A DNA stretch of 32,214 bases, taken from positions 1 to 32,214 of the IMG/VR virus record IMGVR_UViG_3300032327_000225. One strand, written 5' to 3'. The notes beneath the pieces were generated by a model. It was not told the DNA's origin and searched no databases. It saw nothing but the letters and a program-made list of their open reading frames with translations. Shown here piece by piece: positions 4,753-29,441 of the stretch. Made by a program: the position numbers and the translations under genes. Source of the stretch: a virus. Taxonomy: Duplodnaviria > Caudoviricetes. How positions within the stretch are numbered: position 1 is the stretch's first letter; every line of letters begins with the position of its first letter.

Positions 4753-4941
4753 TTATTCACCGCTGTATTCTATCACAAGGGCGCCGTCAATGTCTATAAA
4801 TGCTCTATAGACATCGTCTTGGGATAATGCTTCTAGAATGCCAGATTTCGCGTCTTCTTCAATTTTGTCTAGGTAGTCTGCTATACCGTAGTAGTCAAGT
4901 CTAGCGGTCAATTGTTCATCTATAGTCAGTTCTTTTTCCAT
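4753..4941 (-). CDS. Small acidic hypothetical protein (start probably ATG 4941)
   Basis: MEKELTIDEQ...; SD-like AGGA upstream; overlaps the 3' end of the HNH gene. Confidence 0.55.
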   Translation of the reverse strand: MEKELTIDEQLTARLDYYGIADYLDKIEEDAKSGILEALSQDDVYRAFIDIDGALVIEYSGE

Positions 4942-5669
4942 TCTATATCCTGTTCTGGTATCCATCCTTTCCTGAAATACTTAACTAGATTCATAAACGG
5001 GCCTACTTCCTTGCCGTCGGTTTTCCAGTTATAATTCTTATTCATAGTCAATCCGTACAATTTACAATATGACGGTTTGTTGTTAGTAATCCATATATTG
5101 TAAATCTCATCTGCTTTTTTCCATAATGCTTTTGTGACTTCTGTTGCTCTAGGATGATTCCACGGTTTAATACCGGCACACGGATTATTATCCTTCATGC
5201 GATTCGAGTGGTTCTCTCGTTCCTCTAATGTTAAATCAGTTTTTCTTAATTTAACTGACAATCCTTTATTCCAAGCGCCATTTAATGTCGATGGATTATT
5301 TGGCCCTGTCATATACTCTTGATTCTTTTTCCTTGCTTCGCCATTTTTCCTTAAACAGTGATTATCACCGCTTGTGTTCTCACTAAATTTTCTTTTTAAC
5401 CAACCGTATGTTTTATTATTTCTTCTTACATACTTAGTAGGTACCGTTAACATATTGGCGGCAAAAATTAAAGAAGAATTTGTTGGATATATCTTAACTA
5501 ACAATAAATGACAAGTATAGTGCTCTTCCGGAGTTAACTCTACTAAGTTACTTAACTCATCAGTTCCGCCTATACATCTAGGAATAATGTGATGAGTCTC
5601 TGTATATTCGTCTAATATTCTATTTTGACCTCTTTCTATTATTTTATCATAAATCTGTTGGTAGTCCAT
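4926..5669 (-). CDS. Free-standing HNH homing endonuclease (Mob-like)
   Basis: ETHHIIPRCIGGTDELSNLVELTPEEHYTCH HNH motif and basic C-terminal region. AT-rich, with its own TAAATA (5688-5693) and SD AGGAGA. Confidence 0.9.
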   Translation of the reverse strand: MDYQQIYDKIIERGQNRILDEYTETHHIIPRCIGGTDELSNLVELTPEEHYTCHLLLVKIYPTNSSLIFAANMLTVPTKYVRRNNKTYGWLKRKFSENTSGDNHCLRKNGEARKKNQEYMTGPNNPSTLNGAWNKGLSVKLRKTDLTLEERENHSNRMKDNNPCAGIKPWNHPRATEVTKALWKKADEIYNIWITNNKPSYCKLYGLTMNKNYNWKTDGKEVGPFMNLVKYFRKGWIPEQDIEWKKN

Positions 5670-10117: not shown

Positions 10118-10801
10118 TTATTTATCGTACCAAACTCGTTTATTATCTACAAGTTTCCATCCTCTTCCTTTGCATCCGTTATCAACTATAACTTTTCCAC
10201 GTAAATTTTCATATGGGGATAATTTAGGCATGTCTGCACGTCTAATACGCCACCCTTTTGTCTGCTTTTGAAATAAGTGACTTTTAGGATTATTAAGTGC
10301 TGTAGGCATAGATTTATCTACATTATGTTCTTCACACCATTTGGATATATTTTGAACATACACTTCTGTTGGGTTGATGACTGTACTTACATACCACCCT
10401 TTAGTACGCTTTTCAGCTTGGTTAGCATACAAGTTTGTTTTTTCTTCTGGACTTAATAATTTCCACCAAGTTCTAATTCCTTGCATTGTGTTGTTACTAG
10501 TATCTCTAGTGGCATAATTTATAAACTTGCTTAAATCTCCACCCTCACCGCCTGATGCCAGATTATAGCTCATAGGATCAGTTGTAGCATTACTTTCAGC
10601 TATCCAGTGCTTTTCTCGTTCGGCTAGATGTGTTTTATTATTGCAATATTCAAGGACAATTTTTTCAAAATTTTCCTTTCCATATTTGTTAATTGCATTT
10701 TTGAGGATTTTTCCAGATCCAAGATAATATGCGTTATTACCTGCATCTTTTCCAATGTACCACTTGCCGTTTATTTTATTAACAACCTTATAAATTATCA
10801 T
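10118..10801 (-). CDS. Free-standing GIY-YIG homing endonuclease (Seg-like)
   Basis: IYKVVNKINGKWYIGK, YLGSG, KYGKENF, EREKHWI and YNLASGG; TAAATA 5 nt before the ATG. Confidence 0.92.
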   Translation of the reverse strand: MIIYKVVNKINGKWYIGKDAGNNAYYLGSGKILKNAINKYGKENFEKIVLEYCNNKTHLAEREKHWIAESNATTDPMSYNLASGGEGGDLSKFINYATRDTSNNTMQGIRTWWKLLSPEEKTNLYANQAEKRTKGWYVSTVINPTEVYVQNISKWCEEHNVDKSMPTALNNPKSHLFQKQTKGWRIRRADMPKLSPYENLRGKVIVDNGCKGRGWKLVDNKRVWYDK

Positions 10802-16118: not shown

Positions 16119-16235
16119 ATGAAAATCATTCAATCAATCATGAATTTTATCAACGCATTGAGATATGCTAGTCAAGCTGCTAATTTGGCACGTAACGGCA
16201 AATACAAAGAAGCACAGGCCATGTACAGAGACTGA
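16119..16235 (+). CDS. 38-aa amphipathic helical peptide
   Basis: Not in the ORF track. SD AGAGGA; reads MKIIQSIMNFINALRYASQAANLARNGKYKEAQAMYRD*, with TGATG coupling to the GNAT. Confidence 0.7.
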   Translation: MKIIQSIMNFINALRYASQAANLARNGKYKEAQAMYRD

Positions 16236-16783
16236 TGCCCATGGTTCGCAGACTACTTGTACAAGAGTATCCAAAGTACAGAGCGCATCTTAAAACTCTA
16301 GACGAGACTAGTAGACTGTTGAGATTTGGATATCAAATAAGCGACGAAGGCATTGATGCTGTATGCGACAGCGTTGAAAAGGATGTTGTTCATCACATAC
16401 TGTTTTGTATTGAGAATCAACAGTTAGATATTATTGCTGTAGGGCATGTTGCCACCCGTAATGGTATGGAACTGGCGTTTTCGGTACACAAAGATTATCA
16501 AGGACAAGGGCTTGGCAACAGGCTAATGAGTCGCTGTATTCGCTATTGTCGCACCCACGGTATCCTTAAGGGCTGTATGGTTTGTTTATCTAGTAATGCG
16601 GCAATCAAGCACCTTTGCCTTAAAAATGGCATTCATATTCATTCAGAGCATGGGGAAACACTAGCTGATATTGAGCTAGATAGTCCTAATGTCAGTACCT
16701 TTGTGGAAGAGCAAGTGTCTACTAATCTAGCAATATTTGATTATGCTCTTAAGAGATCGTTATTGTCTTGGTCATTTAAGTAA
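16235..16783 (+). CDS. GNAT-family acetyltransferase (Pat/acyl-CoA-synthetase-acetylating type)
   Basis: LD..SRLLRFG, ELAFSV, acetyl-CoA motif YQGQGLG and CLSSNAA. Confidence 0.88.
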   Translation: MPMVRRLLVQEYPKYRAHLKTLDETSRLLRFGYQISDEGIDAVCDSVEKDVVHHILFCIENQQLDIIAVGHVATRNGMELAFSVHKDYQGQGLGNRLMSRCIRYCRTHGILKGCMVCLSSNAAIKHLCLKNGIHIHSEHGETLADIELDSPNVSTFVEEQVSTNLAIFDYALKRSLLSWSFK

Positions 16784-16797
16784 AATAGCCACTTCAG

Positions 16798-16831
16798 TTT
16801 ACAAATAGATAATATATCTATATAATAAATA
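16798..16831 (+). promoter_or_regulatory. Overlapping sigma70 (TTTACA-17-TATAAT) and late (TAAATA) promoters
   Basis: TTTACA 16798-16803, TATAAT 16821-16826 and TAAATA 16826-16831, followed by inverted repeat GACAGCAA-AG-TTGCTGTC at 16836-16853. Confidence 0.75.
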
Positions 16832-16886
16832 CTCGGACAGCAAAGTTGCTGTCGTACACAGAAACACATACACAAGGAGATTTACA

Positions 16887-17123
16887 ATGTTTTCATTTGA
16901 TTCAATCATCGACACCGTTCAAAACGGCAAAAAGCAGTTTGTAGAGACTTTCGTTACAGACGCAAAATTCAAAGCAGAACTAGTCAAATTAATAGATGCA
17001 CAAGCCGAATTTGCCAAAGGTCAAGTTAATACCACCTTAGCAATCGCAGAAGCATTTTACACCAATGCTAATAAAGCGGTTAATAAAGTATCTAAAAAAG
17101 CTGCCAAAGTTGAGGTAGCATAA
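16887..17123 (+). CDS. Phasin-like amphipathic helical protein
   Basis: Small, all-helical, Ala/Lys-rich with no Cys or Trp; IDTVQNGKKQFV.TFV...K.EL..LIDAQ.EFAK pattern; SD AAGGAG. Confidence 0.55.
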   Translation: MFSFDSIIDTVQNGKKQFVETFVTDAKFKAELVKLIDAQAEFAKGQVNTTLAIAEAFYTNANKAVNKVSKKAAKVEVA

Positions 17124-17124
17124 T

Positions 17125-17397
17125 ATGTCATTCGAAACTCCAAAACTACCAGAAGTAAAATTCAACCAATCAAAAAATGGTTACGAAATTAGAAGCGATA
17201 TCTTAGCTATGGCTAAAGATGCTGTTATCGAAGAATACAAATACAAATATGCCGGTTGGGAATTAACAGCTAAAAAGGATGAAAAGACCGGAGAATTAGT
17301 TGGCTCTGTTACTATGCCAGAATTTCCAGGTCTTGATAAAATTTTAGAGGCCGCAGAAAAAATGTATGGTTTTGTAAATTCAGGCGCAAAAAAATAA
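17125..17397 (+). CDS. Hypothetical phage protein
   Basis: KNGYEIRSDILAMAKD...P..DKILEAAEKMYGFV; SD GAGG. Confidence 0.8.
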   Translation: MSFETPKLPEVKFNQSKNGYEIRSDILAMAKDAVIEEYKYKYAGWELTAKKDEKTGELVGSVTMPEFPGLDKILEAAEKMYGFVNSGAKK

Positions 17398-17442: not shown

Positions 17443-17466
17443 GAAAGGACTCTTAAGAGTCCTTTC
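17443..17466. terminator. Bidirectional terminator between convergent units
   Basis: Perfect 24-bp palindrome GAAAGGACTCTTAAGAGTCCTTTC with T-rich runs on both sides. Confidence 0.85.
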
Positions 17467-17470
17467 TTTA

Positions 17471-17576
17471 TAAGTGGTCGTTTTAAGAATGGCTTCCAAG
17501 GGCACGACTCCTTACCATACTAGCCCAGCACCCGGGCACACACAAACCGTTACGAATAACGGGTCCTAAGGTGTGT
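17471..17576 (-). ncRNA. Candidate structured RNA with three stem-loops and a pseudoknot
   Basis: Helices ACACAC/GUGUGU enclosing CUUAGGAC plus CCGUUA-UUCG-UAACGG; GCCCGG-GUG-CUGGGC; and AUGGU-AAGG-[AGUCGUGC]-CCUU-GGAA-GCCAU. The 3' ACGAC is complementary to loop GUCGU. Confidence 0.6.
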
Positions 17577-18159
17577 TTGTTTGTCTCCGTCTCTTAGATT
17601 CTTTAGAAGAGACAGAAACGTATTCCCAATTATTTATATTATCAGAACGAGGCATTCCGTCATATACTGATTTTAAAATTCTTTTATTAGTTCCGTTTAA
17701 GTCTGTAACATTCACAGTTCCTACAGAAGTTTTGCCGCCGTTGTTGCCTTTAGTTTTTAATCCGTGAGCTTTTCTACGTTCAGGAGTCCAATAAGTTTTA
17801 TTAAACTCGCTATGTCTTTTTCGATCAGCTGCGTCCCATTTAGGAACAGGAGGTTGCTTACCTCCAATTGTTTTATTAGTTAATATACCGTTAACCTCTA
17901 TTCCCAGTCTGCCATATTTTAAAATATAATAGTCTTCTCGATTAAAAGCCAGTAGTTCGCTTTCAATGTTACTTTCTAGCTCTACAATAGTAGGCGGAGT
18001 TCCGGAATCGATTAAATGTTTAATCATTTGCCATTTTTCTTTGTTTTCTTTTTTTGAAGAATTTTCATTAAGATGGTCAAACTTTCTTGAACCGGATCCT
18101 TTACCTACATAAAAAGGGAGACCGGTGTTAGGATTAATATAAGCATAAATGTAATACAT
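17566..18159 (-). CDS. GIY-YIG endonuclease (LEM-3/COG3680-like N-terminus); true start probably ATG 18159
   Basis: YYIYAYINP...PFYVGKG.G.R..DH, AFNREDYYI.KYGR and G.LTN; AT-rich. Confidence 0.88.
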   Translation of the reverse strand: MYYIYAYINPNTGLPFYVGKGSGSRKFDHLNENSSKKENKEKWQMIKHLIDSGTPPTIVELESNIESELLAFNREDYYILKYGRLGIEVNGILTNKTIGGKQPPVPKWDAADRKRHSEFNKTYWTPERRKAHGLKTKGNNGGKTSVGTVNVTDLNGTNKRILKSVYDGMPRSDNINNWEYVSVSSKESKRRRQTNTP

Positions 18160-18171
18160 ACATTTATTTAT

Positions 18172-18196
18172 CACCTACCTTATAATAAGGTAGGTG
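18172..18196 (-). promoter_or_regulatory. Perfect 11-bp hairpin abutting the late promoter (18165-18170) of the GIY-YIG gene
   Basis: CACCTACCTTA-TTA-TAAGGTAGGTG followed by A-TAAATA-AATGT-ATG. Confidence 0.7.
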
Positions 18197-18200
18197 TTCT

Positions 18201-18512
18201 TTAAGCAAATTGTTTTCCGTGCAATTTAACATTTAATACAGTCTGAATAATGTTCCAAGCAGACTTATATTCTTTATTGGCAATCAGTTGTTTGACTTGT
18301 GCTTTTTGTTCAGAAGATGCCTTCATAAAGAATTGAGCCACTTCCATAGCACCAATATTGCCTGGATATACAGCTTCCTGATGTATGCTTTCGCCGCCAC
18401 CATCGCCGCCACTATCCCCAGAATAGTCTCCGCCGTATCCATACCAACCATAGTACATGCCGCGTGACTTCTTGCGCTTTTTACGTTCAGTTATAAACTC
18501 ACTTGCTTTCAT
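18201..18512 (-). CDS. Probable internal head protein (CTS-like start, basic plus Gly/Tyr-rich segment)
   Basis: MKASEFITE-RKKRKKSR-GMYYGWYGYGGDYSGDSGGDGGGES then EAVYPGNIGAME; SD AAGGA. Confidence 0.7.
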   Translation of the reverse strand: MKASEFITERKKRKKSRGMYYGWYGYGGDYSGDSGGDGGGESIHQEAVYPGNIGAMEVAQFFMKASSEQKAQVKQLIANKEYKSAWNIIQTVLNVKLHGKQFA

Positions 18513-18695: not shown

Positions 18696-19859
18696 TTATT
18701 GATCTTGTTGTTTAACAATTCTATAGTCCGTATCTGGATACTCTGGATACTTGCGATTTAGTTTGCCCATTAGATCTGTACGATCGTTAGCTGGAATATT
18801 TGCCGTGCGATTTGTGGGAATATGTGTTACTGCGTATGTTCCTGGACCATCATTTGGATCGTCTTCAGCACCTGGCTCTGCATCTGGTTCAGCTTCAACC
18901 TTGCTTGCCACGCTTAGTGGATATTTCTCTTGAATAGCTGCAATTTCTTTTGGAATATCGTATCCACCGCGAACTAGTTCAGTACTGCCTTGTTTAATTT
19001 CTTCACCGTGTGCTTGAATGCCGCGAATAATTTCCGTCATCAGTCCTGGAAATAGTTTAGCAAATTTTGCATCGTTACCTTGACGATCGTGCCGACTGTC
19101 TTGATCACCGTTGACAATTTGATTAGTGGCTGCATGAAACTGCCATTTACCGTCAGCAACATCCTGATTTTGTTTGTCTGTAATACTAACGATCATACCG
19201 TTCGGCGCATAGTTAGTAAACCAACGAAGCCCTGAACTTGAGTTAGTACAAAAGTTTGGCTTGTAACCTTCTGCATTACCAAATGTATAGCAAGCACCGT
19301 AGTTTAATGGAACAATAGCAAAGTAACGATCATTGTCTACTACCACAACATCTTTCTTTTCACGCTTCATCTTTTCGATATGTTCGGCATCTTTAATACG
19401 ATCTAGTTCATTGCGATAGCCACGGTCGTTACGAATACGTTGTAGTTGTTTAATACTCTTAAACTTGTTAAAATCTTGATCAGCTGGGCGTAGTAGGCTA
19501 CGCTTGTTTAATGCATACCAAGCACCTAGTGCATCGCCTCCCTCACCGTTAATATCTTCGTAGTCAGCAGCGCCGTTGATGTATAGTCGTGTAAGCCAGT
19601 CATCAAACCGTCCATCTGCAGACAAGTCACCATAGTTGTTGCTACGTAGTGTGTCATCTAACAACTGACTCCACGCCTTGACAATGTCTTGATCGGACGG
19701 CTTAGGTCCCAATCGGGCAACTAGTGTGCGCGGTAGTGTTGCATCATGACGCCAAGCAAGGCCTATCATCTTAGCCATCTTAGGATCATTGATGATCTTA
19801 GCGGCAATGTTGGCTTCTGCTAGTGCTAATTTAGATTCAAATATTTGTTTAAAGTTCAT
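18696..19859 (-). CDS. Probable internal head/ejected protein
   Basis: MNFKQIFE...LAEA start and a central VPLNYGAC...NFCT...KWQFH domain; ATGA coupling. Confidence 0.7.
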   Translation of the reverse strand: MNFKQIFESKLALAEANIAAKIINDPKMAKMIGLAWRHDATLPRTLVARLGPKPSDQDIVKAWSQLLDDTLRSNNYGDLSADGRFDDWLTRLYINGAADYEDINGEGGDALGAWYALNKRSLLRPADQDFNKFKSIKQLQRIRNDRGYRNELDRIKDAEHIEKMKREKKDVVVVDNDRYFAIVPLNYGACYTFGNAEGYKPNFCTNSSSGLRWFTNYAPNGMIVSITDKQNQDVADGKWQFHAATNQIVNGDQDSRHDRQGNDAKFAKLFPGLMTEIIRGIQAHGEEIKQGSTELVRGGYDIPKEIAAIQEKYPLSVASKVEAEPDAEPGAEDDPNDGPGTYAVTHIPTNRTANIPANDRTDLMGKLNRKYPEYPDTDYRIVKQQDQ

Positions 19860-20737
19860 CCTGTGATCAATGCCCGTTTAAAAAATGATAATACAGCGCC
19901 TAGTTTCTTTTGGTCGCCACTCGAAATGTCTTTGAGTAGTAGTTGCATGCCTTCGGGACGCTGTGCAGAATATCCATGGTAACTGCGATTAATTTCACCA
20001 GTTTCGTTTGGATAGTAGTGATGTGCAGCCATGTGTATTGCTTGACTAATAGCGGCATTTAAGAACTCAGGTCTTTGTTTTTCGCCAGCATCAAGACTCA
20101 TTATAGCTTGATCTAATTTTTTTAACTGTGCAATCTTGCGTTCAGCTTTTTCAAACGCATCGTTTTTAATCTGATTAGCAACATGGCCTTTGATATCAGC
20201 TATGGCTGTGGTCATGGCTTTGTTCCATAACGGGCTGAATTTTTGAACCAATGTGTCCTGATTCAGTACTGTGGCTTTTTCAAGACTTTGTTTAGCCTGT
20301 TGGCGAGTCTTTTTAAGTGTTTTAGTATTGCCAGTATCTTGTCCAGCCCACATTTTTTGTGGGTTGCCGCCTAGTTCGCTTTTTAGGAAATTTAATACAT
20401 TTCCGCCACGACTATCTGAATAATTTTTTACTTCTCCACCTGTACTAGCGGCTGCTACGTAACTACCAGTATTGCCGCCGGTGGCCCTGATAGCACCAAC
20501 ACCGTTGGGATATTTCATAATGACCCAAGCGCCGCGGTATGAATCTTTTAATTCACTCCATGCAATCTTTGCAATAGGTTTGTATGCTTGCTCGTGTCCA
20601 AGATCGCCTTCTCGGTGTAGTTGTTTTACTACTTCGGCACCGCCGGGTAATCCGCGGATAATGTCCATTGACGAACTGGCTTCAAATACTAGGCTTTCGC
20701 ATAGTTGTGCAAATATTTGGTAACTTGTGGCTTTCAT
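19856..20737 (-). CDS. Probable internal head protein
   Basis: MKATSYQIFAQLCESLVFEA; TAAATA (20743-20748) lies 5 nt before the ATG. Confidence 0.7.
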   Translation of the reverse strand: MKATSYQIFAQLCESLVFEASSSMDIIRGLPGGAEVVKQLHREGDLGHEQAYKPIAKIAWSELKDSYRGAWVIMKYPNGVGAIRATGGNTGSYVAAASTGGEVKNYSDSRGGNVLNFLKSELGGNPQKMWAGQDTGNTKTLKKTRQQAKQSLEKATVLNQDTLVQKFSPLWNKAMTTAIADIKGHVANQIKNDAFEKAERKIAQLKKLDQAIMSLDAGEKQRPEFLNAAISQAIHMAAHHYYPNETGEINRSYHGYSAQRPEGMQLLLKDISSGDQKKLGAVLSFFKRALITG

Positions 20738-20750
20738 AAGAGTATTTATC

Positions 20751-21533
20751 TTAACTTAATCTAGGGCGGTCTTGAGTGATCTCACGGCGATTTGCGTGTT
20801 CTACGCTGTCGCCTTCTGGCCACGAGTATATGTAGTTGCCGAATTCATCTTGTACTAATAACCAGCGGATTCCGCCAGCTGAATATTGCTTAATGTCAGC
20901 GGTGTAGCCAGGAATAGTAGTGTCGAAGTCAATGTTGCCATCTCCTAGATCATCACCGTTTTTACGGACCCAGTTAGCTACGGCATTTACTTCGCCCGTA
21001 GAGTTAGGACCTTGACCGCCTAGGTTGGCTACTACATACACATCATCTGTAGGAGTGCGTGTTAGTGTGCGGAATAACTGTTTGCCTAGTGTACGAATAG
21101 CACGGCTCATGTTGCCCGGTAAGTTTGATACCTTATGGAAATCTGGGCTTTGTACACCAGCTGTCTGTAGGTTTGCACTTGCCACTGCTGGCAAGTTAGC
21201 AGTGCGGACTTCTGTATTTAATGCTGTATTAGTATCAGGTTCGGCAAATCCCCAATCGTCATCTTCGGGTTCTGCTTCTATGTTACGTATACGGCTTAAC
21301 ATATCTCCCATGCGTGGATTATGTATACCAGCTGTTGCACGAGCAGTAGCTGATGCTGACGCTTTTTTACGCTCAGGTGCATCAGCTGGTGCTTGCGGTT
21401 TTTGTTCCGGAGTTCTATTGGATAGTGGTTGATCATATTGCGGAGCGTCTAAATCAGGACCTAGATTAACCTTAGACTTGGTTTTAGTCTTAGGTTGTGT
21501 GGCTTCTTTAAAATATTGTTTAAACGATTTCAT
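20751..21533 (-). CDS. Probable internal head protein (true start ATG 21533, MKSFKQYFKEA)
   Basis: N-terminus closely resembles T4 internal-protein capsid-targeting sequences; TAATG coupling to the nuclease gene. Confidence 0.7.
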   Translation of the reverse strand: MKSFKQYFKEATQPKTKTKSKVNLGPDLDAPQYDQPLSNRTPEQKPQAPADAPERKKASASATARATAGIHNPRMGDMLSRIRNIEAEPEDDDWGFAEPDTNTALNTEVRTANLPAVASANLQTAGVQSPDFHKVSNLPGNMSRAIRTLGKQLFRTLTRTPTDDVYVVANLGGQGPNSTGEVNAVANWVRKNGDDLGDGNIDFDTTIPGYTADIKQYSAGGIRWLLVQDEFGNYIYSWPEGDSVEHANRREITQDRPRLS

Positions 21534-21973
21534 TATTGGCACCATGATTGTTTGGCATCACCGTAGTATTCGCGAGCATGTCCATTAGCAATTAATGCTT
21601 GACGTAGGCTCTGTCCATCTAGTATGATGTCACCAAGTACACGACCACCGTACTTGTCCCATCCGTATAGGGTAACTTGACGTTTAGTTGATTTGTTTAT
21701 AAGAGCTTTAGTAAAAACGCTAGCGTCTTCACCTCGAGATTTTTCGCTGTCGCATTGTCCGCGAAATCCTTTCTCTGGCGTGTCAATACCGTAAATTCTT
21801 ACTGCTAACTCTGGCTTGAGGGGTGCAGGTAGAAAGGGTGCGGCGATAACAACTGTATCGCCATCCGTTGCTCTGATAATTTGTGCGTCATAGGTAACAC
21901 CTACTGGCGTCTTTTGTGCCAGTGCAGGCATTGCCGCTACTGCGATTAGTAGGATTAATAATAGTTTTTTCAT
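21533..21973 (-). CDS. Thermonuclease (SNase-like) with signal peptide; start probably ATG 21973
   Basis: MKKLLLILLIAVAAMPALA signal; DGDT, RIYGIDTPE and DKYGGRVLG. Confidence 0.92.
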   Translation of the reverse strand: MKKLLLILLIAVAAMPALAQKTPVGVTYDAQIIRATDGDTVVIAAPFLPAPLKPELAVRIYGIDTPEKGFRGQCDSEKSRGEDASVFTKALINKSTKRQVTLYGWDKYGGRVLGDIILDGQSLRQALIANGHAREYYGDAKQSWCQ

Positions 21974-21977
21974 TTTG

Positions 21978-22619
21978 TTATTTTTCGCCAATGAAGATAT
22001 GACCTACTCTACTTGCTGTCCAAGTATTATTGTTAGTTGATCCATACCTTGTATTTAATGCTGAACGTACTCCTTGATTTACCGCACTAGCATCCCACAC
22101 TGTAAGAACCACTATATTACCGCTAGCCACAGCATTTAAAGCATTAGCCAATGCTGTTACGTCACCAGGAACTCCGTAGGTATCGTAGTTGGCTATGCTG
22201 ACAACATCACCGTAGGAGTTTAACACTACCATGTTATGTCCACGGTCGCCAATATTTAACACTTCAATGTCATTGACAACTACTCTGGCATTTTGATAGT
22301 TTGGAACATCAAACGTTGACGAATAAACATAAATCTTATTACCGCTAACATACTGCGTAGTTGATATTGCTGACGTTGTTCCAAATGCTTCGTAGAATGT
22401 AAATGCACCAACTGTGGCAATCCAAGGACGGCCAGCAACCAGTCCGCCTATGTTGGGATTGTTGACCACTATATTGTCATTGTATTGTGTTGGCAACTGT
22501 GTGATATCGTAGGTTGCTCGCGGATTACCGCTGACGGCACGTTTAGTTGCGGCCAAATCTAGTTTGGCTTTTTGCCTCAGCTCTTTTGTTGCCAGTGTTG
22601 ATATTCCGTTAAGTGCCAT
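21978..22619 (-). CDS. Virion-type protein with C-terminal ILEI/PANDER (GG-lectin)-like domain
   Basis: RGHNMVVLN...YDTY...LANALNAV.SG.IVVL.VWDAS...FIG; TAAATA 7 nt before the ATG. Confidence 0.65.
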   Translation of the reverse strand: MALNGISTLATKELRQKAKLDLAATKRAVSGNPRATYDITQLPTQYNDNIVVNNPNIGGLVAGRPWIATVGAFTFYEAFGTTSAISTTQYVSGNKIYVYSSTFDVPNYQNARVVVNDIEVLNIGDRGHNMVVLNSYGDVVSIANYDTYGVPGDVTALANALNAVASGNIVVLTVWDASAVNQGVRSALNTRYGSTNNNTWTASRVGHIFIGEK

Positions 22620-22629
22620 AGTGTGATAT

Positions 22630-23337
22630 TTATCGTTTAATTGTAGCCAGCTTTAAAAACTCCAAGCCCTTGATATACATCCAACCTATGTCAAATTCGT
22701 ACCATTTACGGCTAAACTTGGGATTGGCAATGTCTGCATGGTGATTATTGTGTAGTTCTTCTCCGCCAATCCATATACCTATTGGCATTAAATTGGTACT
22801 TTTATCGTTAGTGTCGGTGTTGCGATAACCCCACCAATGTCCTGCTCCGTTGATAAATCCAGCAGCCCAGAAAGGAATCCATATCATCTGTACCCCCCAT
22901 ACTAAGAATCCCCAAGGTCCAAATAATGCCAAGTCTATGGCCAACATTACAAGAACACCCCAGCGGTGGTATGGAATGTATAGTTTACGTTCGATCCAGT
23001 CTTTGGGAGTGCCCATGCCATATTTCATAACCATGTGAGCGTCACCGCCTGCTCGGTTGTAATACTTGACGCCGCCAAATACTAGATTCCAAATGCCAAA
23101 TATGTGCGGACTGTGTGGGTCGCCTTCTACATCTGTATTTTGATGATGTTTACGATGTATTGCTACCCATTGCTTGGTAGTCATGCCAGTTGTAAGCCAT
23201 AGCCAAAAACGCATAAAATGACTTATTACTGGATGGAACTCTACGCCGCGATGTGCTTGACTGCGATGTAGGTATAGGGTTACTGACACTATGGTCAAGT
23301 GTGTCATTAAGAGAGTTGCCAATATTAGTTCTATCAT
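22630..23337 (-). CDS. desA: Membrane fatty-acid (delta-9-type) desaturase; true start ATG 23337
   Basis: Three His boxes (HRSQAH, HRKHH, HNNHH), GDPHSP, TM helices and EFDIGW; SD AAGGA. Confidence 0.93.
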   Translation of the reverse strand: MIELILATLLMTHLTIVSVTLYLHRSQAHRGVEFHPVISHFMRFWLWLTTGMTTKQWVAIHRKHHQNTDVEGDPHSPHIFGIWNLVFGGVKYYNRAGGDAHMVMKYGMGTPKDWIERKLYIPYHRWGVLVMLAIDLALFGPWGFLVWGVQMIWIPFWAAGFINGAGHWWGYRNTDTNDKSTNLMPIGIWIGGEELHNNHHADIANPKFSRKWYEFDIGWMYIKGLEFLKLATIKR

Positions 23338-23351
23338 ATTTTCCTTGTTTA

Positions 23352-24842
23352 TTATCTTACCCAGTACCAAATGACCCTTGGATCTGAAACACTTATACTA
23401 CTTGTTCTACTCGCAAGTTGTTGGAACCAAGGTGCTGGATTAAAACTATTCAGTGATATAATTGTACCCCACCATGCTCCATCGCTGTCTGTGCCCAACA
23501 TCATATTGCCGCCAGGATAGTTACCAGATGTTGCTAGATATGGCATACGGGCTTCAACTGTGTCGGCTGAGTAGGTCCAAGAGGCAGTATCGCCAGGAGC
23601 ACCTGCGTCAAATTTTACCAATTCTGTGATGTCTTTGCGATAACCTACTCCACCCAATTGCTGTGTACCCATTGCTGGTGATGTGCCTGGAGTATATGTA
23701 TCTACAAAACTGTAGTTTTCATTAGCACGCCACGCACCGCCATTGCGTCCACGATAACCCGCATCCAACATATAGTCAAATGTCTGTTGGGCATCGCTGA
23801 CATTTTTCTTGATGTAGTCTGCCCATGCCAGTATGCTGTAGTTGTTGTCGGCGCTTTGTGTGCTGGCATAGTCAACTAATGTAGCGGGCGGAGTTGTGCT
23901 GTTGCGTAATAATACTGTGCTATCGTCCCACCCATCTCGTAGGTTATTCTGTACCACCAGAGTCCAACCTCCGCCTGCTGTAGTCATGTCACAGTAGACT
24001 TGGAATGGTGTACCACTATTGATATTTGGGTTCTTGATCCAATATAATCCGTCTGCGCTGGCAGGATAGTCTTGTTTGATCTGCCAAGCACTAGCGCCAG
24101 GATCTGCGATACTCAAACCTGTAAATCCAGTACCGCCTGTACTCTCATTAATGTTTGCGCTGAGAGTTGCTAGTATTGGGCCAGTGATGCTATCCGAACG
24201 AATGGTCACACGATAGGCCTCTAATCCTTCTGCGATATTGTCGCTGATAGATGTTACTGTAAATTCGCCTGCGTTGTTGGTATAGGTAAATGTTCCACTA
24301 GTTGTGTCAAAATCACTAAGTCTGTTTTCCAAAGTCCAGTAGTAGGTGCCGTTAGTGATGTTAGTGCCACCGGCAATAAATGTTTGAGCATTTCCTTCAT
24401 TAGCTGTGTTGCCTCCGCCCCAAGCAAGTGAGTAAGTTGGTCCCGTACTAGCATCAGTGATTGACCAAGCACCACTGTCATAGTAATCAGAAGCACCTGG
24501 ACTAGATCCCAAAAGAACACCCCAAGACTCCGTACCTTCTGTGGTTGTGTCAGCAACAAATCCTATAGTAGTCGCAACAGTTTGCGCGAAGGAAGTTGTG
24601 CCTGGATCCCAGATGCCTGACAATGTGCCAGTCATGTCTGTGGCAGGATCAGCAGTAGGCTCACCTTTGCCTACTACGGTCCAGTAAACAAGATTGCCAG
24701 TCCAGTTTGACACCTGAATAGTGACATCTGTACCGTAGCCTTCTGTAGGGCTTGCTCCGTATGTGGCATAGGCTGTTGGAGTTCCTCCTCCGCCAGAGCC
24801 GCTGCTGACAACAGCACCTATTAATGTTAGCATAATGCTCAT
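23352..24842 (-). CDS. Tail-fibre-associated adhesin: Ig/Calx-beta-like repeats plus fibrinogen C-terminal-like domain
   Basis: D.TTEG.E and DNIAEGLE repeats; DGLYWI...PFQVYCDMTTAGGGWTLV. Confidence 0.8.
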   Translation of the reverse strand: MSIMLTLIGAVVSSGSGGGGTPTAYATYGASPTEGYGTDVTIQVSNWTGNLVYWTVVGKGEPTADPATDMTGTLSGIWDPGTTSFAQTVATTIGFVADTTTEGTESWGVLLGSSPGASDYYDSGAWSITDASTGPTYSLAWGGGNTANEGNAQTFIAGGTNITNGTYYWTLENRLSDFDTTSGTFTYTNNAGEFTVTSISDNIAEGLEAYRVTIRSDSITGPILATLSANINESTGGTGFTGLSIADPGASAWQIKQDYPASADGLYWIKNPNINSGTPFQVYCDMTTAGGGWTLVVQNNLRDGWDDSTVLLRNSTTPPATLVDYASTQSADNNYSILAWADYIKKNVSDAQQTFDYMLDAGYRGRNGGAWRANENYSFVDTYTPGTSPAMGTQQLGGVGYRKDITELVKFDAGAPGDTASWTYSADTVEARMPYLATSGNYPGGNMMLGTDSDGAWWGTIISLNSFNPAPWFQQLASRTSSISVSDPRVIWYWVR

Positions 24843-24851
24843 TGCGTATCC

Positions 24852-27800
24852 TTAATCGTCGTTAATAATGTCAGCACCAGCAACCATCCAAACATCACCA
24901 TGATTTTCAGCATCGTCTGAACGGGTGCCTTCTTTGATCTTGATCAGTGTAATCATCTGTCCTGAACCGCTGTCAGGGAATCTAATAGCAGGAGTTTTCA
25001 TATCCCCGCCTGATAACCATAGTTCACCCGTTCCGCCGTTGTTACTGTACTCACACTCTACACGAACATCGTTGCCGCTGATGTTGATGACGGTCACAGT
25101 ATACCCAACTGGTAGTGAGACTTTTTTCCAGTTAGGAATAACCATCGCATAGTTTTCACTTTCGACGAGAATATGACGACCACTATCTTCTGTTTTCAGT
25201 GTATAACGACCAGCACTGATCTTCACCTGTGGCACAATGGCTGTGCTGAATGTCTGCTTGCTACCATCAGCAAACTCAATGGCACCACCCTCATTGCTCA
25301 GGATTGTCTGTGGATAGAAAGTGAACTGTTCTTCTGGGTAGTTGGTGTAGTAATACTTGACATTGTCCACGGCTATAATGCCATTACTGTGAGCTGTAGG
25401 AGTAAACGTTGTGCTTGTTCGACCACTTAGTCTCCAAACTTTAATCTTGTCATCGTTAGGTTCAGCATAGGTCCATAAACCATGTAGGCCAACACCTGTA
25501 CCGTCCAATGGTAGTGTAACGATGAACGCATTGTCAGTATCATCATCCGGAGCATCAGTAAAGCCTACCAATGTAAACTGGTCACCGTGTATGCTCAGTG
25601 CTTTGTTGCCATAACCCTCATAGTTCAACTGAGTGTCACTTTCGTGTATGCCAAACAAACGTTTCCAAACAACTTCACCGTCGGTGTCTAACTTAACAAT
25701 ATGGATGGCTTGGTCGTTAATAATATCAGTGTAGTCAGTGACTTCCCAAGCAATTACAATCTCATCTGTAGCAGGATCAACTGCTACACTGATGTTGCTT
25801 TCCGGACCTTCCCATCCATCATCTGTATCAACACCAATAAACTGCTGCCATATGATGTTTAGACTGCTGTCCAACTTGGTGACTAGTATTTCGTCTGTTT
25901 CGTCTCTATTGTTGTTATACATTTGGTGTACTACAACAATGCTGTCATTGGCCATTAGAGCCACTGCTCCTCTATAAGCATCTTGTTCACCCATGTCGTC
26001 GTTAACAAACTTGCTGGCCAGTACTGTGCCTGTACTTGAATATTTGACTACCAGTGCTTGATCATAGTTTACTTCATAGCGCCCGTTACCCACAGCATAC
26101 AAATGTGTGCCAGTAGAGTTCCACGCTACGCCAGTAAACACATCGCTAGTTGGCCCACCAATGGCAATGGTCATGTCTGGTGTCCACACAAATGCTTCGC
26201 CGTCTAAATTCTGCTTGATAGCAAATGTTGCTTCAACGTCAGCAAAGTCAACACTCATATCAGTGCTGAGTAATAAGTGTGTTGATGGAACGCTGCCGCT
26301 AATGGTTATTGGATTAGCAAGAGCAGTACCGTCAACGTTGGTAACGTTAACAGTTACATTATTAGCAGGTGCTGTGCCGCCAGCAAAACTTGTTCCTGGG
26401 ATAGTGATCACATCACCCACTACATAGTTTTGTCCTACTGTATTAATTCCACCGTAGTTAAATACGCCAGTAGTTGGATCAAACTGTGCGTAAAAGGTTG
26501 CTCCATTACCAGTTTGATAGGGTGTGCTAGTTATGTTTGTGTATAGACCTTCAAGGGCACTGCCAGGGCCTGAATACGCGGCAGTTGCTCCGGTGATACC
26601 GCCGCTTCCATCAACCACTGTTATTGTGATGATAACGTCAGTGCCTTCGCCTATTCCGCCATTAAAGTCTCCACTATCAAGTATAAGTTTGTGTCCAGGT
26701 AGATAGTTTGTGCCACCAGTAGTTACAGCTAAACCAGAAATAAGATTACTGCTGTCAATAGTTACTTGAAATACTGCCCCACTACCTTGACGTGTCGCAC
26801 CAGTTAAGCCATCGTAATAGTTAACATTATCAACTCGAACTTGGTCAATGATGTCACTGCCAGTAATCCACCAGTCGCTATAGTTACTAAAAGATTCTCC
26901 TGGGAAATGTTCAGCATCAATGTCTGCTTTGGCAACCCACAACTTATCAACACCGCTTCCTGCCAACGGAGTAACACTACCGTATTCCGCATACTCGTTA
27001 AACTTTTGACCAACTACAGCTATTTTACCAGTTGAACTAACATCAGCATCATAAGCGTATACATCGCCTTCGTCTCTGAGTGTTGTTGTGTTAACCACTG
27101 TGCCTGATCCTGAATCAATCTGTAATATCACAGTTTCAGTCCACTCGCTGTCCATTGTGTCACCGTTGAATGTTGGAGTTGTAATTACCACTACAGGATT
27201 GCCAGTGACTGGATCAAAGGTCATTGAACGCACTTGACATTCTGCGTTGTCATAATAGTCCTGAACGCCGGTGTAGTTGTTGGTGCCGCTGACAGCCGTG
27301 CCGGACACAATAGTAACTGTGTCTACTGATCCCACATAATAATCACTGTTAGTTATAGTTGCTACTTCTAAAGTTAATGAATTAACATTGTTACCGCCAA
27401 GATCGTAGCCACTGATAACTATCCTATCCCCTACTTTATATCCATTGCCACCTGTGTCCACAGTGACAGTATCGTAAACGCCGTCTACTACGGAAACATT
27501 AAACCGTGCCCCAGCACCACTGTACAGTTGAGTTGCCCATACTACGGCACCTTCTGGAGTGAATTTGTAAATGTGTGCGTTGCTATTGTTCCAATAGTTA
27601 CTGCCCACAGCATAGGCAAATCCGTCACGATCGTGACATACACTTTCAAACCAAATGTCGTCGTTATAGTTAGGGAATACACCATACATAGTAGCATAAC
27701 CCAACTGACGTTGATTTAATTTGATGTTGGCATCTGCTGGTGCTGAGAATGTACCGTCTTTGCCAAATGTCCAAGTGTTGACCTTGCTGGCTGTGCGTCT

Positions 27801-29438
27801 TACGCTGACACCCACCGCCTGTGTGACGATGTTTCCAGAGCCGTCTTTGGACATGTTAATATCGTTTTGTAGTACTGTTGGACCGTTAACAGCTACTAGT
27901 GTATTGGTTAACTTGCCTGGAATACGGCTTGTACTCAGTGTCCAACCTTCTGCTGACCAAGCGGTAGCCGCTGTGTCAAACTGTGCTAGGAATCCTTGAT
28001 TGAAGTAATCACTATTGCCCCACGGTGTGTCCAAGTCAGGACCACTTTGTCCAAGTCTAACAGCACCGCCAATAAGAATCTTATTGCCTTGAACACTCAT
28101 TAAGTCTGTCATCATACCACCCCAAGGAGCATCGTTACCTTCTCCTGGAACTTCTTGTGCGTTGGGATTGTCAAAATAACTTTGCCAAATCACAGCACCT
28201 GTGGCCTTGTTGTATCGGGCCAGAGCCAATGTGGCATTCCAATATCCGCTTTGTGCGTTGTCTACCTCGCCTGCTAGTCTGTATTGATAAGTGCTGGCAT
28301 ACAAGTATAAGTCGCCATCGTCACCTACCGCTGTGCTAACACCTACCCAAAAGCATTCGCCGGGTCCAACTCTACGATCCCATACCATAGCACCCTGTGC
28401 GGTCATCTTGAATACCACAATGGCATTGCTTCTGCGACCGTTAAACTGCTGTGAGGTAGGAGAGTCAACCCAATAACTACCAGTGGCATAGATGTTGCCC
28501 AGACTGTCAAGACTGATGCCTGATACTTGACCTTCATTGACTTCATCTAGCGATACAGTTTTCTGCCAAGCTGATCCGCCTGCTGAAGTGATCTTGGCCA
28601 CTAACATTACCTTATCTGTAACTGTATTTTCGCTGATTGTGTGTACAACTTCAGCAGAGCCAGCTATCACAATGTCATCATTAAAATCCACTGCTAGAGC
28701 ACGGATGTGTGAGTAGCCGCTGTCAACCATTAGTGATCGTTGCCAGATAATTGTATCAGCAGAGGAGTTTAGTTTGGCCACAAATGCTATATCTTCGTCA
28801 CTGACCTGGTAGTAAAAATCACCACCAATGATGATGTTGTTTTCGCTGTCCATAGCAATGGCAGTGACATTGAAATTTTGATTAAGCACCAAGTCTTCAC
28901 TGAATATAACAGCACCTGTGACACCGTTGATTTTAACAATAATCTGAGTGTTGCTGTCATCTGGATTCACCGCAAATAAGATGTTGTCATCACTGTCAAT
29001 GGCCACATTGCTTTCTGGATAGTAACTGCCGTTGACAGCACCCAGTGACTTCTTCCAAATCAATTCACCTGCTGGAGTAAACTTGAATACTGCTATTCCG
29101 TCACTGTTAAGGTTAATTCTAGCAACAACAATAGCATTGCCTTCGCTGTCATAGTTGGTGCTGTAGACTGTTACACCGTCCCACTGTGGATTATTTGTTT
29201 CGTCTTCTCTGCGTAATCTAACAAACCAACGATCAGCATCGCCAGTTTCTACTTGAATACTGCTAGTTGATGTTAGTGATCCGCCGTTAGAATAGTCTAG
29301 TAGATTCCACGGAGTAGAACCGTCACCAAGTTTTAGTAGGCCAGTGTCATACTCAAATCCTGGTTCACCTTGTGCCAGTGTAGGATTTGATAATGTCCAG
29401 GCCGCAGCCGTGTCGCGTCTAAATTTAATTTTTGCCAT
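24852..29438 (-). CDS. 1528-aa tail fibre/receptor-binding protein: Mtd_N-like N-terminus, beta-propellers, GG.NY..GD repeats
   Basis: KIKFRRDTAAAWTLSNPTLAQGEPGFEYDTGLLKLGDGSTPWNLLDY; repeated v.K....G...W and iAvDs.dNi propeller blades. Confidence 0.85.
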   Translation of the reverse strand: MAKIKFRRDTAAAWTLSNPTLAQGEPGFEYDTGLLKLGDGSTPWNLLDYSNGGSLTSTSSIQVETGDADRWFVRLRREDETNNPQWDGVTVYSTNYDSEGNAIVVARINLNSDGIAVFKFTPAGELIWKKSLGAVNGSYYPESNVAIDSDDNILFAVNPDDSNTQIIVKINGVTGAVIFSEDLVLNQNFNVTAIAMDSENNIIIGGDFYYQVSDEDIAFVAKLNSSADTIIWQRSLMVDSGYSHIRALAVDFNDDIVIAGSAEVVHTISENTVTDKVMLVAKITSAGGSAWQKTVSLDEVNEGQVSGISLDSLGNIYATGSYWVDSPTSQQFNGRRSNAIVVFKMTAQGAMVWDRRVGPGECFWVGVSTAVGDDGDLYLYASTYQYRLAGEVDNAQSGYWNATLALARYNKATGAVIWQSYFDNPNAQEVPGEGNDAPWGGMMTDLMSVQGNKILIGGAVRLGQSGPDLDTPWGNSDYFNQGFLAQFDTAATAWSAEGWTLSTSRIPGKLTNTLVAVNGPTVLQNDINMSKDGSGNIVTQAVGVSVRRTASKVNTWTFGKDGTFSAPADANIKLNQRQLGYATMYGVFPNYNDDIWFESVCHDRDGFAYAVGSNYWNNSNAHIYKFTPEGAVVWATQLYSGAGARFNVSVVDGVYDTVTVDTGGNGYKVGDRIVISGYDLGGNNVNSLTLEVATITNSDYYVGSVDTVTIVSGTAVSGTNNYTGVQDYYDNAECQVRSMTFDPVTGNPVVVITTPTFNGDTMDSEWTETVILQIDSGSGTVVNTTTLRDEGDVYAYDADVSSTGKIAVVGQKFNEYAEYGSVTPLAGSGVDKLWVAKADIDAEHFPGESFSNYSDWWITGSDIIDQVRVDNVNYYDGLTGATRQGSGAVFQVTIDSSNLISGLAVTTGGTNYLPGHKLILDSGDFNGGIGEGTDVIITITVVDGSGGITGATAAYSGPGSALEGLYTNITSTPYQTGNGATFYAQFDPTTGVFNYGGINTVGQNYVVGDVITIPGTSFAGGTAPANNVTVNVTNVDGTALANPITISGSVPSTHLLLSTDMSVDFADVEATFAIKQNLDGEAFVWTPDMTIAIGGPTSDVFTGVAWNSTGTHLYAVGNGRYEVNYDQALVVKYSSTGTVLASKFVNDDMGEQDAYRGAVALMANDSIVVVHQMYNNNRDETDEILVTKLDSSLNIIWQQFIGVDTDDGWEGPESNISVAVDPATDEIVIAWEVTDYTDIINDQAIHIVKLDTDGEVVWKRLFGIHESDTQLNYEGYGNKALSIHGDQFTLVGFTDAPDDDTDNAFIVTLPLDGTGVGLHGLWTYAEPNDDKIKVWRLSGRTSTTFTPTAHSNGIIAVDNVKYYYTNYPEEQFTFYPQTILSNEGGAIEFADGSKQTFSTAIVPQVKISAGRYTLKTEDSGRHILVESENYAMVIPNWKKVSLPVGYTVTVINISGNDVRVECEYSNNGGTGELWLSGGDMKTPAIRFPDSGSGQMITLIKIKEGTRSDDAENHGDVWMVAGADIINDD

Positions 29439-29441
29439 TTG

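Follow-up and report, generated by a model that had tools for sequence, protein, structure and literature searches.

Small RNAs that act in trans by base pairing, and that present their recognition sequences in loops, occur in bacteria and phages. The element described here resembles them in its small fold, in recognition through single-stranded loops, in its two contacts, in an origin from its own promoter or from a 3' end, and in its frequent terminator; it differs in that its complement is a conserved functional site of 23S ribosomal RNA (rRNA) rather than an mRNA, in that its long form is pseudoknotted, and in belonging to no Rfam 15 family. Box C/D and H/ACA guide RNAs are likewise antisense to conserved rRNA and pair in two parts, but the present RNA has no boxes, an arm order opposite to that of the H/ACA pocket, no partner enzyme nearby and a bacterial-virus context. 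TnpB omega-RNAs also overlap the 3' end of a nuclease open reading frame (ORF), whereas the nuclease here is of the GIY-YIG and not the RuvC type, the RNA mostly occurs without it, and there is no variable guide, the 3' tail and both loops being conserved. Synthetic oligomers against helix 69 pair with the same helix, with a block of translation reported (passages of PMC12828698, citing Kulik 2017); they are single-arm PNA, of which the present RNA would be a natural, structured, two-arm equivalent.

For the gene arrangement, the counterparts are endonucleases of phage T4. At its 3' end the free-standing GIY-YIG gene segG overlaps the gene 32 operator, a pre-existing pseudoknotted RNA, in the latter's 5' part; relatives of T4 without segG retain this RNA (passages of PMC535899). 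In T4, however, the RNA is the translational operator of the next gene, according to the same passages, whereas here the genes downstream vary and can be convergent or carry a promoter of their own, and a duplicate of the RNA's 5' end remains in front of the nuclease. Further likenesses are the intergenic GIY-YIG genes of Seg type with a late promoter beside a hairpin, the homing-site-like sequence that adjoins the promoter in the I-TevI operator, and the position of SegB among RNA genes (passages of PMC2988022). What differs from the Seg type is a subfamily with its own C-terminal region and putative cutting activity that follows one ncRNA locus through six gene contexts.

The locus lies in a 32-kb virus record, here called the window (all 32,214 nt of the stretch analysed), which also carries tail, virion, ribonucleotide reductase and other homing-endonuclease genes. 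The element is one member of a conserved family, widespread among large uncultured phages, and its main feature, overlooked in the original prediction, is complementarity to rRNA. The nuclease gene that overlaps it is, judging from the comparison of alleles below, an insertion at the RNA locus.

Re-reading positions 17471-17576 confirmed the minus-strand sequence quoted in the original prediction, which had singled out a GC-rich stretch of about 105 nt in AT-rich surroundings; the G+C content is 51% in the element and 36% in both 300-nt flanks. The several helices, the UUCG loop, the terminator-like hairpin that follows and the UAG of the GIY-YIG gene inside CUUAGGAC all lie where they had been placed (Table 1). 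Folding energy is within chance relative to shuffles (z = -0.35 for 17460-17590 and -0.90 for the interval first proposed), an uninformative score that leaves support for the element's reality to come from its homologues. The covariance-model match listed in Table 1 is the sole strong one in the window, and this copy is itself part of the model's training set. A tRNA/tmRNA scan of the window found none. The comparison with Rfam proposed alongside the original prediction returned no family: Rfam 15 had no match at the gathering threshold in the window or in 20 homologous loci, matches over the motif at E <= 5 in 8 loci were weak and unrelated, and Flavo-1, tested separately, was found in 0 of 4 records. 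Membership of the hammerhead, twister, pistol, hatchet, HDV-like or riboswitch families was rejected on the same gathering-threshold result.

Table 1. Features of the RNA element, the overlapping nuclease gene and their surroundings in the window.
Feature	Position	Strand	Evidence or remark
Structured RNA element, long pseudoknotted form	17474..17578	-	Covariance-model match 17474-17581, 61.6 bits; homologues
Arm 1 (ACCUUAGGACC), antisense to E. coli 23S 1921-1931	17562..17572	-	GIY-YIG UAG at 17568-17566 inside
P1, ACACAC 17576-17571 with GUGUGU 17543-17538	17538..17576	-	Encloses arm 1 and P2
P2 hairpin, UUCG loop	17547..17562	-	Optional; variable relative of helix-69 complement
P3 hairpin, loop pairs with 3' tail	17523..17537	-	Typical loop antisense to 16S 517-528; this copy's own is not
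P4 hairpin; arm 2 = UCGUGC, 17507-17502, antisense to 23S 1964-1969	17484..17522	-	
3' tail; ACC pairs with P3-loop GGU (AGC with GCU typical in family)	17474..17484	-	
Terminator-like hairpin between RNA and convergent gene	17443..17466	-	
GIY-YIG endonuclease gene, 197 aa, ATG 18159	17566..18159	-	Pfam PF22945, E = 4.5e-9 (LEM-3-like)
ATAAATA, late-promoter-like, 5 nt before ATG	18165..18171	-	Same position at most other filled loci
Partial duplicate of RNA 5' end (through CCUUA), extended to 11-bp hairpin	18172..18202	-	Directly after upstream stop codon
Upstream gene, 103 aa, function not assigned; TAA abuts 5' duplicate	18201..18512	-	

Three pattern scans of IMG/VR, each returning at least 120 loci, covered 20, 14 and 2 of its 64 parts. 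Of 157 sequences extracted, 153 remained as long-form members once mis-extractions had been dropped, so that the collection of homologues suggested in the original prediction holds at least that many; about 150 are distinct among the matches listed, all from uncultured phages. Mean identity among members is 63%, and since they are related, the counts given here are not independent events. A core-free pattern alone found about 50 members within 2 of the 64 parts (counted by eye), which indicates that the family is abundant. In five genomes of 137-353 kb the covariance model gave a single strong match apiece, besides a weaker, core-degenerate copy in one (G002) and a doubtful match in another (G001). 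That second copy (L653:1500-1580, in a complete genome) has P3, P4 and the tail intact and keeps the 16S-matching loop, with a degenerate core (CCUUAAAC). Searches of cultured phages yielded no member; most matches in a scan of genome contigs were chance ones, and at least one was an rRNA gene (L506). Bacterial rRNA operons that carry a phage label account for many records of the phage collection (H25-H42).

P2 is missing in 30 of the 153 long forms, with 9 unparsed. Shorter architectures, the smallest of about 75 nt, retain only the CUUAGGAC strand and the UUCGCUAC loop, that is, the two arms. One short form follows an ORF whose end resembles that of a ribonucleotide reductase large subunit, an identity that we presume from the C-terminal motif CxxCxG/A, and terminates in a U-tract. 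Short forms lie directly 3' of a gene ending in CxxCxG/A at ten loci (L005, L018, L029, L039, L050, L056, L091, L092, L096 and L101), where a P1-like helix is closed on the 5' side and a U-tract often lies 3' of arm 2.

Covariation in the helices, a check that the original prediction had put forward, was significant (E <= 0.05, tree-aware null, 157 aligned sequences) for two pairs of P3 and seven pairs of P4, and also for two non-canonical, subtype-linked pairs. P1, P2 and the pseudoknot pairs fell below significance in this test (best pseudoknot E = 6.5), P1 because its 5' register varies. When the named structure was scored on an alignment of 71 sequences, 81.4% of cells were paired, compared with 66.2% after shuffling and 31-45% after sliding; by element, the share was 96.9% for P3, 93.2% for the pseudoknot and 65.7% for P1.

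Two tertiary contacts had been proposed for this copy: GUCGU of the P4 loop with ACGAC of the 3' tail and, alternatively, GGU of the middle hairpin (P3) with the overlapping ACC. Over 18 P3-loop types, several of them mis-parsed, cognate P3-loop/tail duplexes were better than permuted ones (p = 4e-5), whereas cognate P4-loop/tail duplexes were not (p = 0.71); the conserved pseudoknot therefore joins the P3 loop to the 3' tail. It is the alternative, GGU/ACC, that holds for the family. GUCGU/ACGAC is confined to this copy, an ACGAC tail being present in 1 of the 26 members with this P4-loop type, and was discarded as a family pseudoknot, although the two contacts could be in competition within this copy. 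Internal pairing of the core loop with the P4 loop was also set aside: it shows no covariation, both sides being nearly invariant, and the rRNA match explains both loops better. Homologues, covariation and the lack of any Rfam 15 match together bear out the original view of a real, conserved, pseudoknotted RNA-like element outside Rfam.

As to complementarity to rRNA, a short-form member matches an annotated 23S rRNA at 19 of 19 bases. We compared 174 sequences (153 long forms and 21 short or added ones, 19 short forms having been chosen by eye) with the rRNA of E. coli rrnB, which may not be that of the hosts; the longest exact antisense match averaged 12.7 nt, against 9.0 nt in the sense direction and 9.0 nt for shuffles. 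All 174 are antisense to 23S at about 1920-1930, over up to 19 nt, and the CUUAGGAC strand, arm 1, is antisense to E. coli 23S 1920-1931, the base of helix 69. Because most members came from a core-containing pattern, this core match is partly built in. Among 50 members of the core-free search with a visible 5' part, 41 have CUUAGGAC and 9 have variants (by eye), of which five change A to G and so still pair with U1923, as G-U, and four break a pair with the E. coli sequence.

Arm 2, the P4 loop, was in none of the viral search patterns, and through it 123 of the 174 sequences have at least 8 nt complementary to 23S 1920-1985, compared with 2.5% of shuffles. It comes in three types, antisense to 23S 1929-1937, 1964-1969 (this copy) and 1966-1979; in the commonest, 1-4 target bases are shared by the two arms, and some members (L007, L043 and L393) are without a recognisable arm 2. 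Single members carry added modules against 23S 1825-1835 (L633) and 1904-1914 (L048). An extra P2-P3 segment complementary to 23S at about 1825-1835 was noted in L633, L642, L535, L567, L559 and L329, the first two of which have a U at core position 8 in common. When 29 of the 174 sequences were compared with 220 rRNA tiles, 23S 1901-1940 and 16S 501-540 ranked first and second; 126 of the 153 long forms have a P3 loop antisense to 16S 517-528, a match that is gone in this copy and may be due to chance.

E. coli, an Acinetobacter-labelled operon and a third genome have the same 23S target site. The 23S sites belong to helices 67-71 of domain IV, and their clustering there suggests that the target is rRNA in its folded state and not linear DNA; in 10.1101/2022.08.30.505801, H67-H71 are described as a single mobile interface unit. 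A conserved single-stranded sequence complementary to a trans target is thus present, the target being 23S domain IV. This copy is a weak example (11 nt in arm 1, 6 nt in arm 2, no 16S match) in a window that contains 55 rRNA matches of at least 11 nt, so its anti-rRNA assignment rests on family membership. For the family, the complementarity makes pairing with rRNA highly probable. Dimerisation through the self-complementary CUUAGG and mimicry of an anti-Shine-Dalgarno sequence are not needed given the 23S match.

Several features point to the CUUAGGAC strand as the transcribed one and place it in the genome. G-U pairs outnumber A-C mismatches in variable stems (83 versus 34), one near-invariant G-U pair is kept in 155 of 156, and the upstream gene is on the same strand in 112 of 118 members. 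The core lies within 14 nt of an upstream stop codon in 86 of the 118, and UAG lies inside the core in 24 cases, 20 of them unrelated genes and 4 GIY-YIG. Co-oriented ORFs at 18696-31859 are spaced equally tightly, from overlaps to +14 nt, and proximity to stop codons therefore reads as compaction; a functional tie of the RNA to stop codons was rejected on this ground. TAAATA stands upstream of 13 of the 38 copies without a called adjacent gene and of 4 of the 114 with one (p = 3e-6), the count of 38 being inflated by missed short upstream ORFs. The commonest neighbour, an 86-aa protein without a Pfam match, occurs at 35 of 83 loci and no neighbour family is constant, which, with the TAAATA enrichment, fits a stand-alone RNA gene in a late region. 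This neighbour (L523:1318-1578 and relatives) usually sits behind a sigma-70-like promoter just 3' of the RNA. One RNA run (X1; weak, contigs only, share 0.05) covered no more than part of the nuclease gene and a neighbour, and none of the element itself.

Surroundings otherwise encoded on the minus strand include a plus-strand island, 16235-17397, that converges on the RNA and contains a GNAT acetyltransferase gene, 78-aa and 90-aa ORFs and a sigma-70-like promoter at 16798-16826. Two more homing-endonuclease-like genes, at 10118-10801 and 4926-5669 on the minus strand, lie near the ribonucleotide reductase genes.

Domain and fold searches of the nuclease found a GIY-YIG domain only, and neither RuvC nor HNH. 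The domain is N-terminal and has the conserved Tyr, Arg, Glu and Asn columns; the predicted model, locally confident (pLDDT 85.8, pTM 0.52), resembles GIY-YIG domains weakly (best E = 0.004; I-TevI 1ln0, E = 0.27, target TM 0.61). Among 72 full-length relatives of 52-96% identity, 66 have a C-terminal peptide that reads the RNA 5' core, in three frames, as against 0 of 20 more distant or partial matches. The RNA overlaps or abuts the 3' end of every distinct full-length nuclease locus retrieved (the window, L121, L122/L123/L646, L124, L647, L201/L202/L643/L645 and L642), loci that present six upstream contexts and differing RNA subtypes. The copy at L642:1214-1340 is much altered, with a longer 3' half, and the nuclease there ends just before the core. 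Each nuclease locus has a 5' RNA remnant before the TAAATA motif, degenerate in L201. The nuclease cassette is thus flanked by a 5' remnant of the RNA on one side and by an intact copy on the other, the last nuclease codons encoding the 5' end of the intact copy.

Empty alleles accord with this arrangement. Between the empty locus L370 and the filled L121 the upstream gene is 85% and the downstream DNA 95% identical, and the two have in common the upstream gene, P3 to the tail and the downstream DNA, with a different P2; since L624 is an empty allele with an L121-type P2, co-conversion of P2 is not established. Further empty alleles, L349 and L551, compare with the filled L124 and L647, and none was found for the window's own upstream gene. 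In the other direction, the GIY-YIG gene is present at 4 of the 83 RNA loci with at least 2 kb of DNA, and the nuclease profile matched in 0 of five RNA-bearing genomes, two of them complete. Model R1 found no RNA copy beside N-terminal-only GIY-YIG relatives at 100 loci, with limited sensitivity, given that it missed the divergent copies at L122, L123, L646 and L642. The nuclease is likely to be a free-standing homing endonuclease, and so an invader of a known kind. The ATAAATA before it resembles the late-promoter consensus of T4 type. The adjoining hairpin at 18172-18202 also scores as a plus-strand terminator and contains the Shine-Dalgarno-like AAGGUAGGUG; it may hide the nuclease start, terminate convergent transcripts or serve as an operator.

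On balance we lean towards a late, trans-acting anti-23S small RNA that would block subunit joining, with the GIY-YIG gene as an insertion and likely a homing endonuclease. The CUUAGGAC strand would be transcribed as the last part of a late operon or from a TAAATA promoter of its own, and P1 and P4 would then present two single-stranded arms, arm 1 to 23S 1920-1931 and arm 2 to a second domain-IV site at 1929-1937, 1964-1969 or 1966-1979, while fold and 3' end would gain stability from the P3/tail pseudoknot. The probable target is domain IV where it lies exposed, on free or immature 50S subunits. If it paired at the base of helix 69, the RNA could disturb bridge B2a, reducing 70S formation or 50S maturation, and might also expose rRNA to turnover. 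Passages of PMC4289901 describe H69 as forming bridge B2a and as exposed on free subunits, and report ribosome degradation with A1919G or A1960G; anti-H69 PNA is reported to block translation (PMC12828698, citing Kulik 2017). The blocking of subunit joining is the weakest and least certain step, and, as ribosomes are still needed late in a lytic infection, inhibition is not an obvious purpose for the phage. The nuclease, for its part, would spread by cutting empty alleles.

Other readings account for part of the same evidence. The RNA might pair with rRNA and yet steer or protect ribosomes, bridging helix 69 and the 16S 530 loop and so favouring 70S monosomes on short-leader late mRNAs, or shielding the site from host rRNA nucleases. 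The 126 of 153 long forms with 10-11 nt antisense to 16S 515-533, the rank of the 16S 501-540 tile as second of 220, and the several window genes with TAAATA 5-7 nt before ATG, a spacing that suggests little or no leader, would all suit such a role; but the 16S-matching loop is occupied by the pseudoknot, the 16S match is missing from 27 of the 153, this copy included, while the variant loops examined retain the pseudoknot, and about 24% of shuffles reach 10 nt somewhere in rRNA, so that a single ancestral coincidence with 16S is possible. We regard steering or protection as unlikely, if by no means negligible. Decidedly unlikely is a bolder reading, in which a ribosome-control RNA would invade 23S helices 69-70 and mostly also the 16S 530 loop, reprogramming subunit joining and mRNA choice, and the specialised homing endonuclease would also cut host rRNA genes, because its insertion site copies conserved rRNA-gene sequence. 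The abutting of the two antisense arms on the target in the commonest type, on a compact, pseudoknotted scaffold, recalls a guide for modification or cleavage of 23S near 1930 by an enzyme of phage or host; arm 2, however, shifts by 35-45 nt between subtypes and hence frames no single nucleotide, the consensus has no C/D or H/ACA box visible by eye, and no enzyme family accompanies the RNA (the window's GNAT gene is at 1 of 83 loci), all of which makes a guide quite improbable.

Readings that do away with pairing to rRNA fare worse. Acting in cis at the 3' ends of late mRNAs, whether as a self-cleaving ribozyme or as a processing or stability signal, the RNA would owe its rRNA match to a captured, inverted fragment of an rRNA gene. 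In 86 of 118 members its core does sit 14 nt or less from an upstream stop, and the RNA is small and pseudoknotted, with invariant loop bases and rearranged architectures. Such spacing is nevertheless normal for co-oriented genes in the window, some copies have their own promoter, there is about one copy per genome, no Rfam ribozyme matched, and one captured fragment cannot explain arm-2 types for three sites; ribozyme and 3' processing roles, both raised in the original prediction, leave the 23S complementarity unexplained, and we hold a cis element to be highly improbable. That the opposite strand is the functional one, a mimic of 23S helices 69-70 and a decoy for rRNA-binding proteins or nucleases, is barely plausible: the plus strand does carry rRNA-sense sequence at 17562-17572 and the complement of the hairpin also folds, but wobble bias, the orientation of upstream genes, the position of TAAATA and the U-tracts of short forms favour the CUUAGGAC strand, and the order of the rRNA pieces is swapped. 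The strand evidence and Rfam also led us to reject a twister-like motif on the opposite strand. Scarcely credible, finally, is the suggestion in the original prediction that the RNA is a partner or guide in a ribonucleoprotein (RNP) with the GIY-YIG nuclease, in the manner of a TnpB omega-RNA. At all full-length nuclease loci examined the RNA overlaps or abuts the 3' end, and its core is read by 66 of 72 protein ends, yet the dependence runs one way: 79 of 83 RNA loci are without the gene, 0 of 5 genomes match the profile, and 20 of the UAG overlaps involve unrelated genes. Empty alleles exist, and both RNA ends are conserved with no variable guide. A homing endonuclease fits the nuclease better than an omega-RNA partner does.

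The element belongs to a real class of phage RNA, apparently not described before, with complementarity to the interface between the ribosomal subunits. The factors that we know of at the ribosomal bridge and decoding surface are proteins. We found no description of the motif or class in the literature, a listing in some supplements or subscription journals being possible; the core motif does not occur in the passages or supplement of PMC10085705 available or in seven supplementary files of PMC10690425, nor is the class described in the abstract and outline of 10.64898/2026.09.22.753630.

The proposal is cheap to test because the target site is the same in E. coli and two other genomes and the shortest members have about 75 nt. 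The three types of arm 2 map rRNA strands that can be invaded, and could inform antisense antibacterials directed at helix 69. The nuclease shows that the RNA locus is conserved enough to sustain a dedicated parasite. If the reading is true, a viral RNA that pairs with the bridge and decoding-site RNA of the ribosome would represent a new mode of host take-over.
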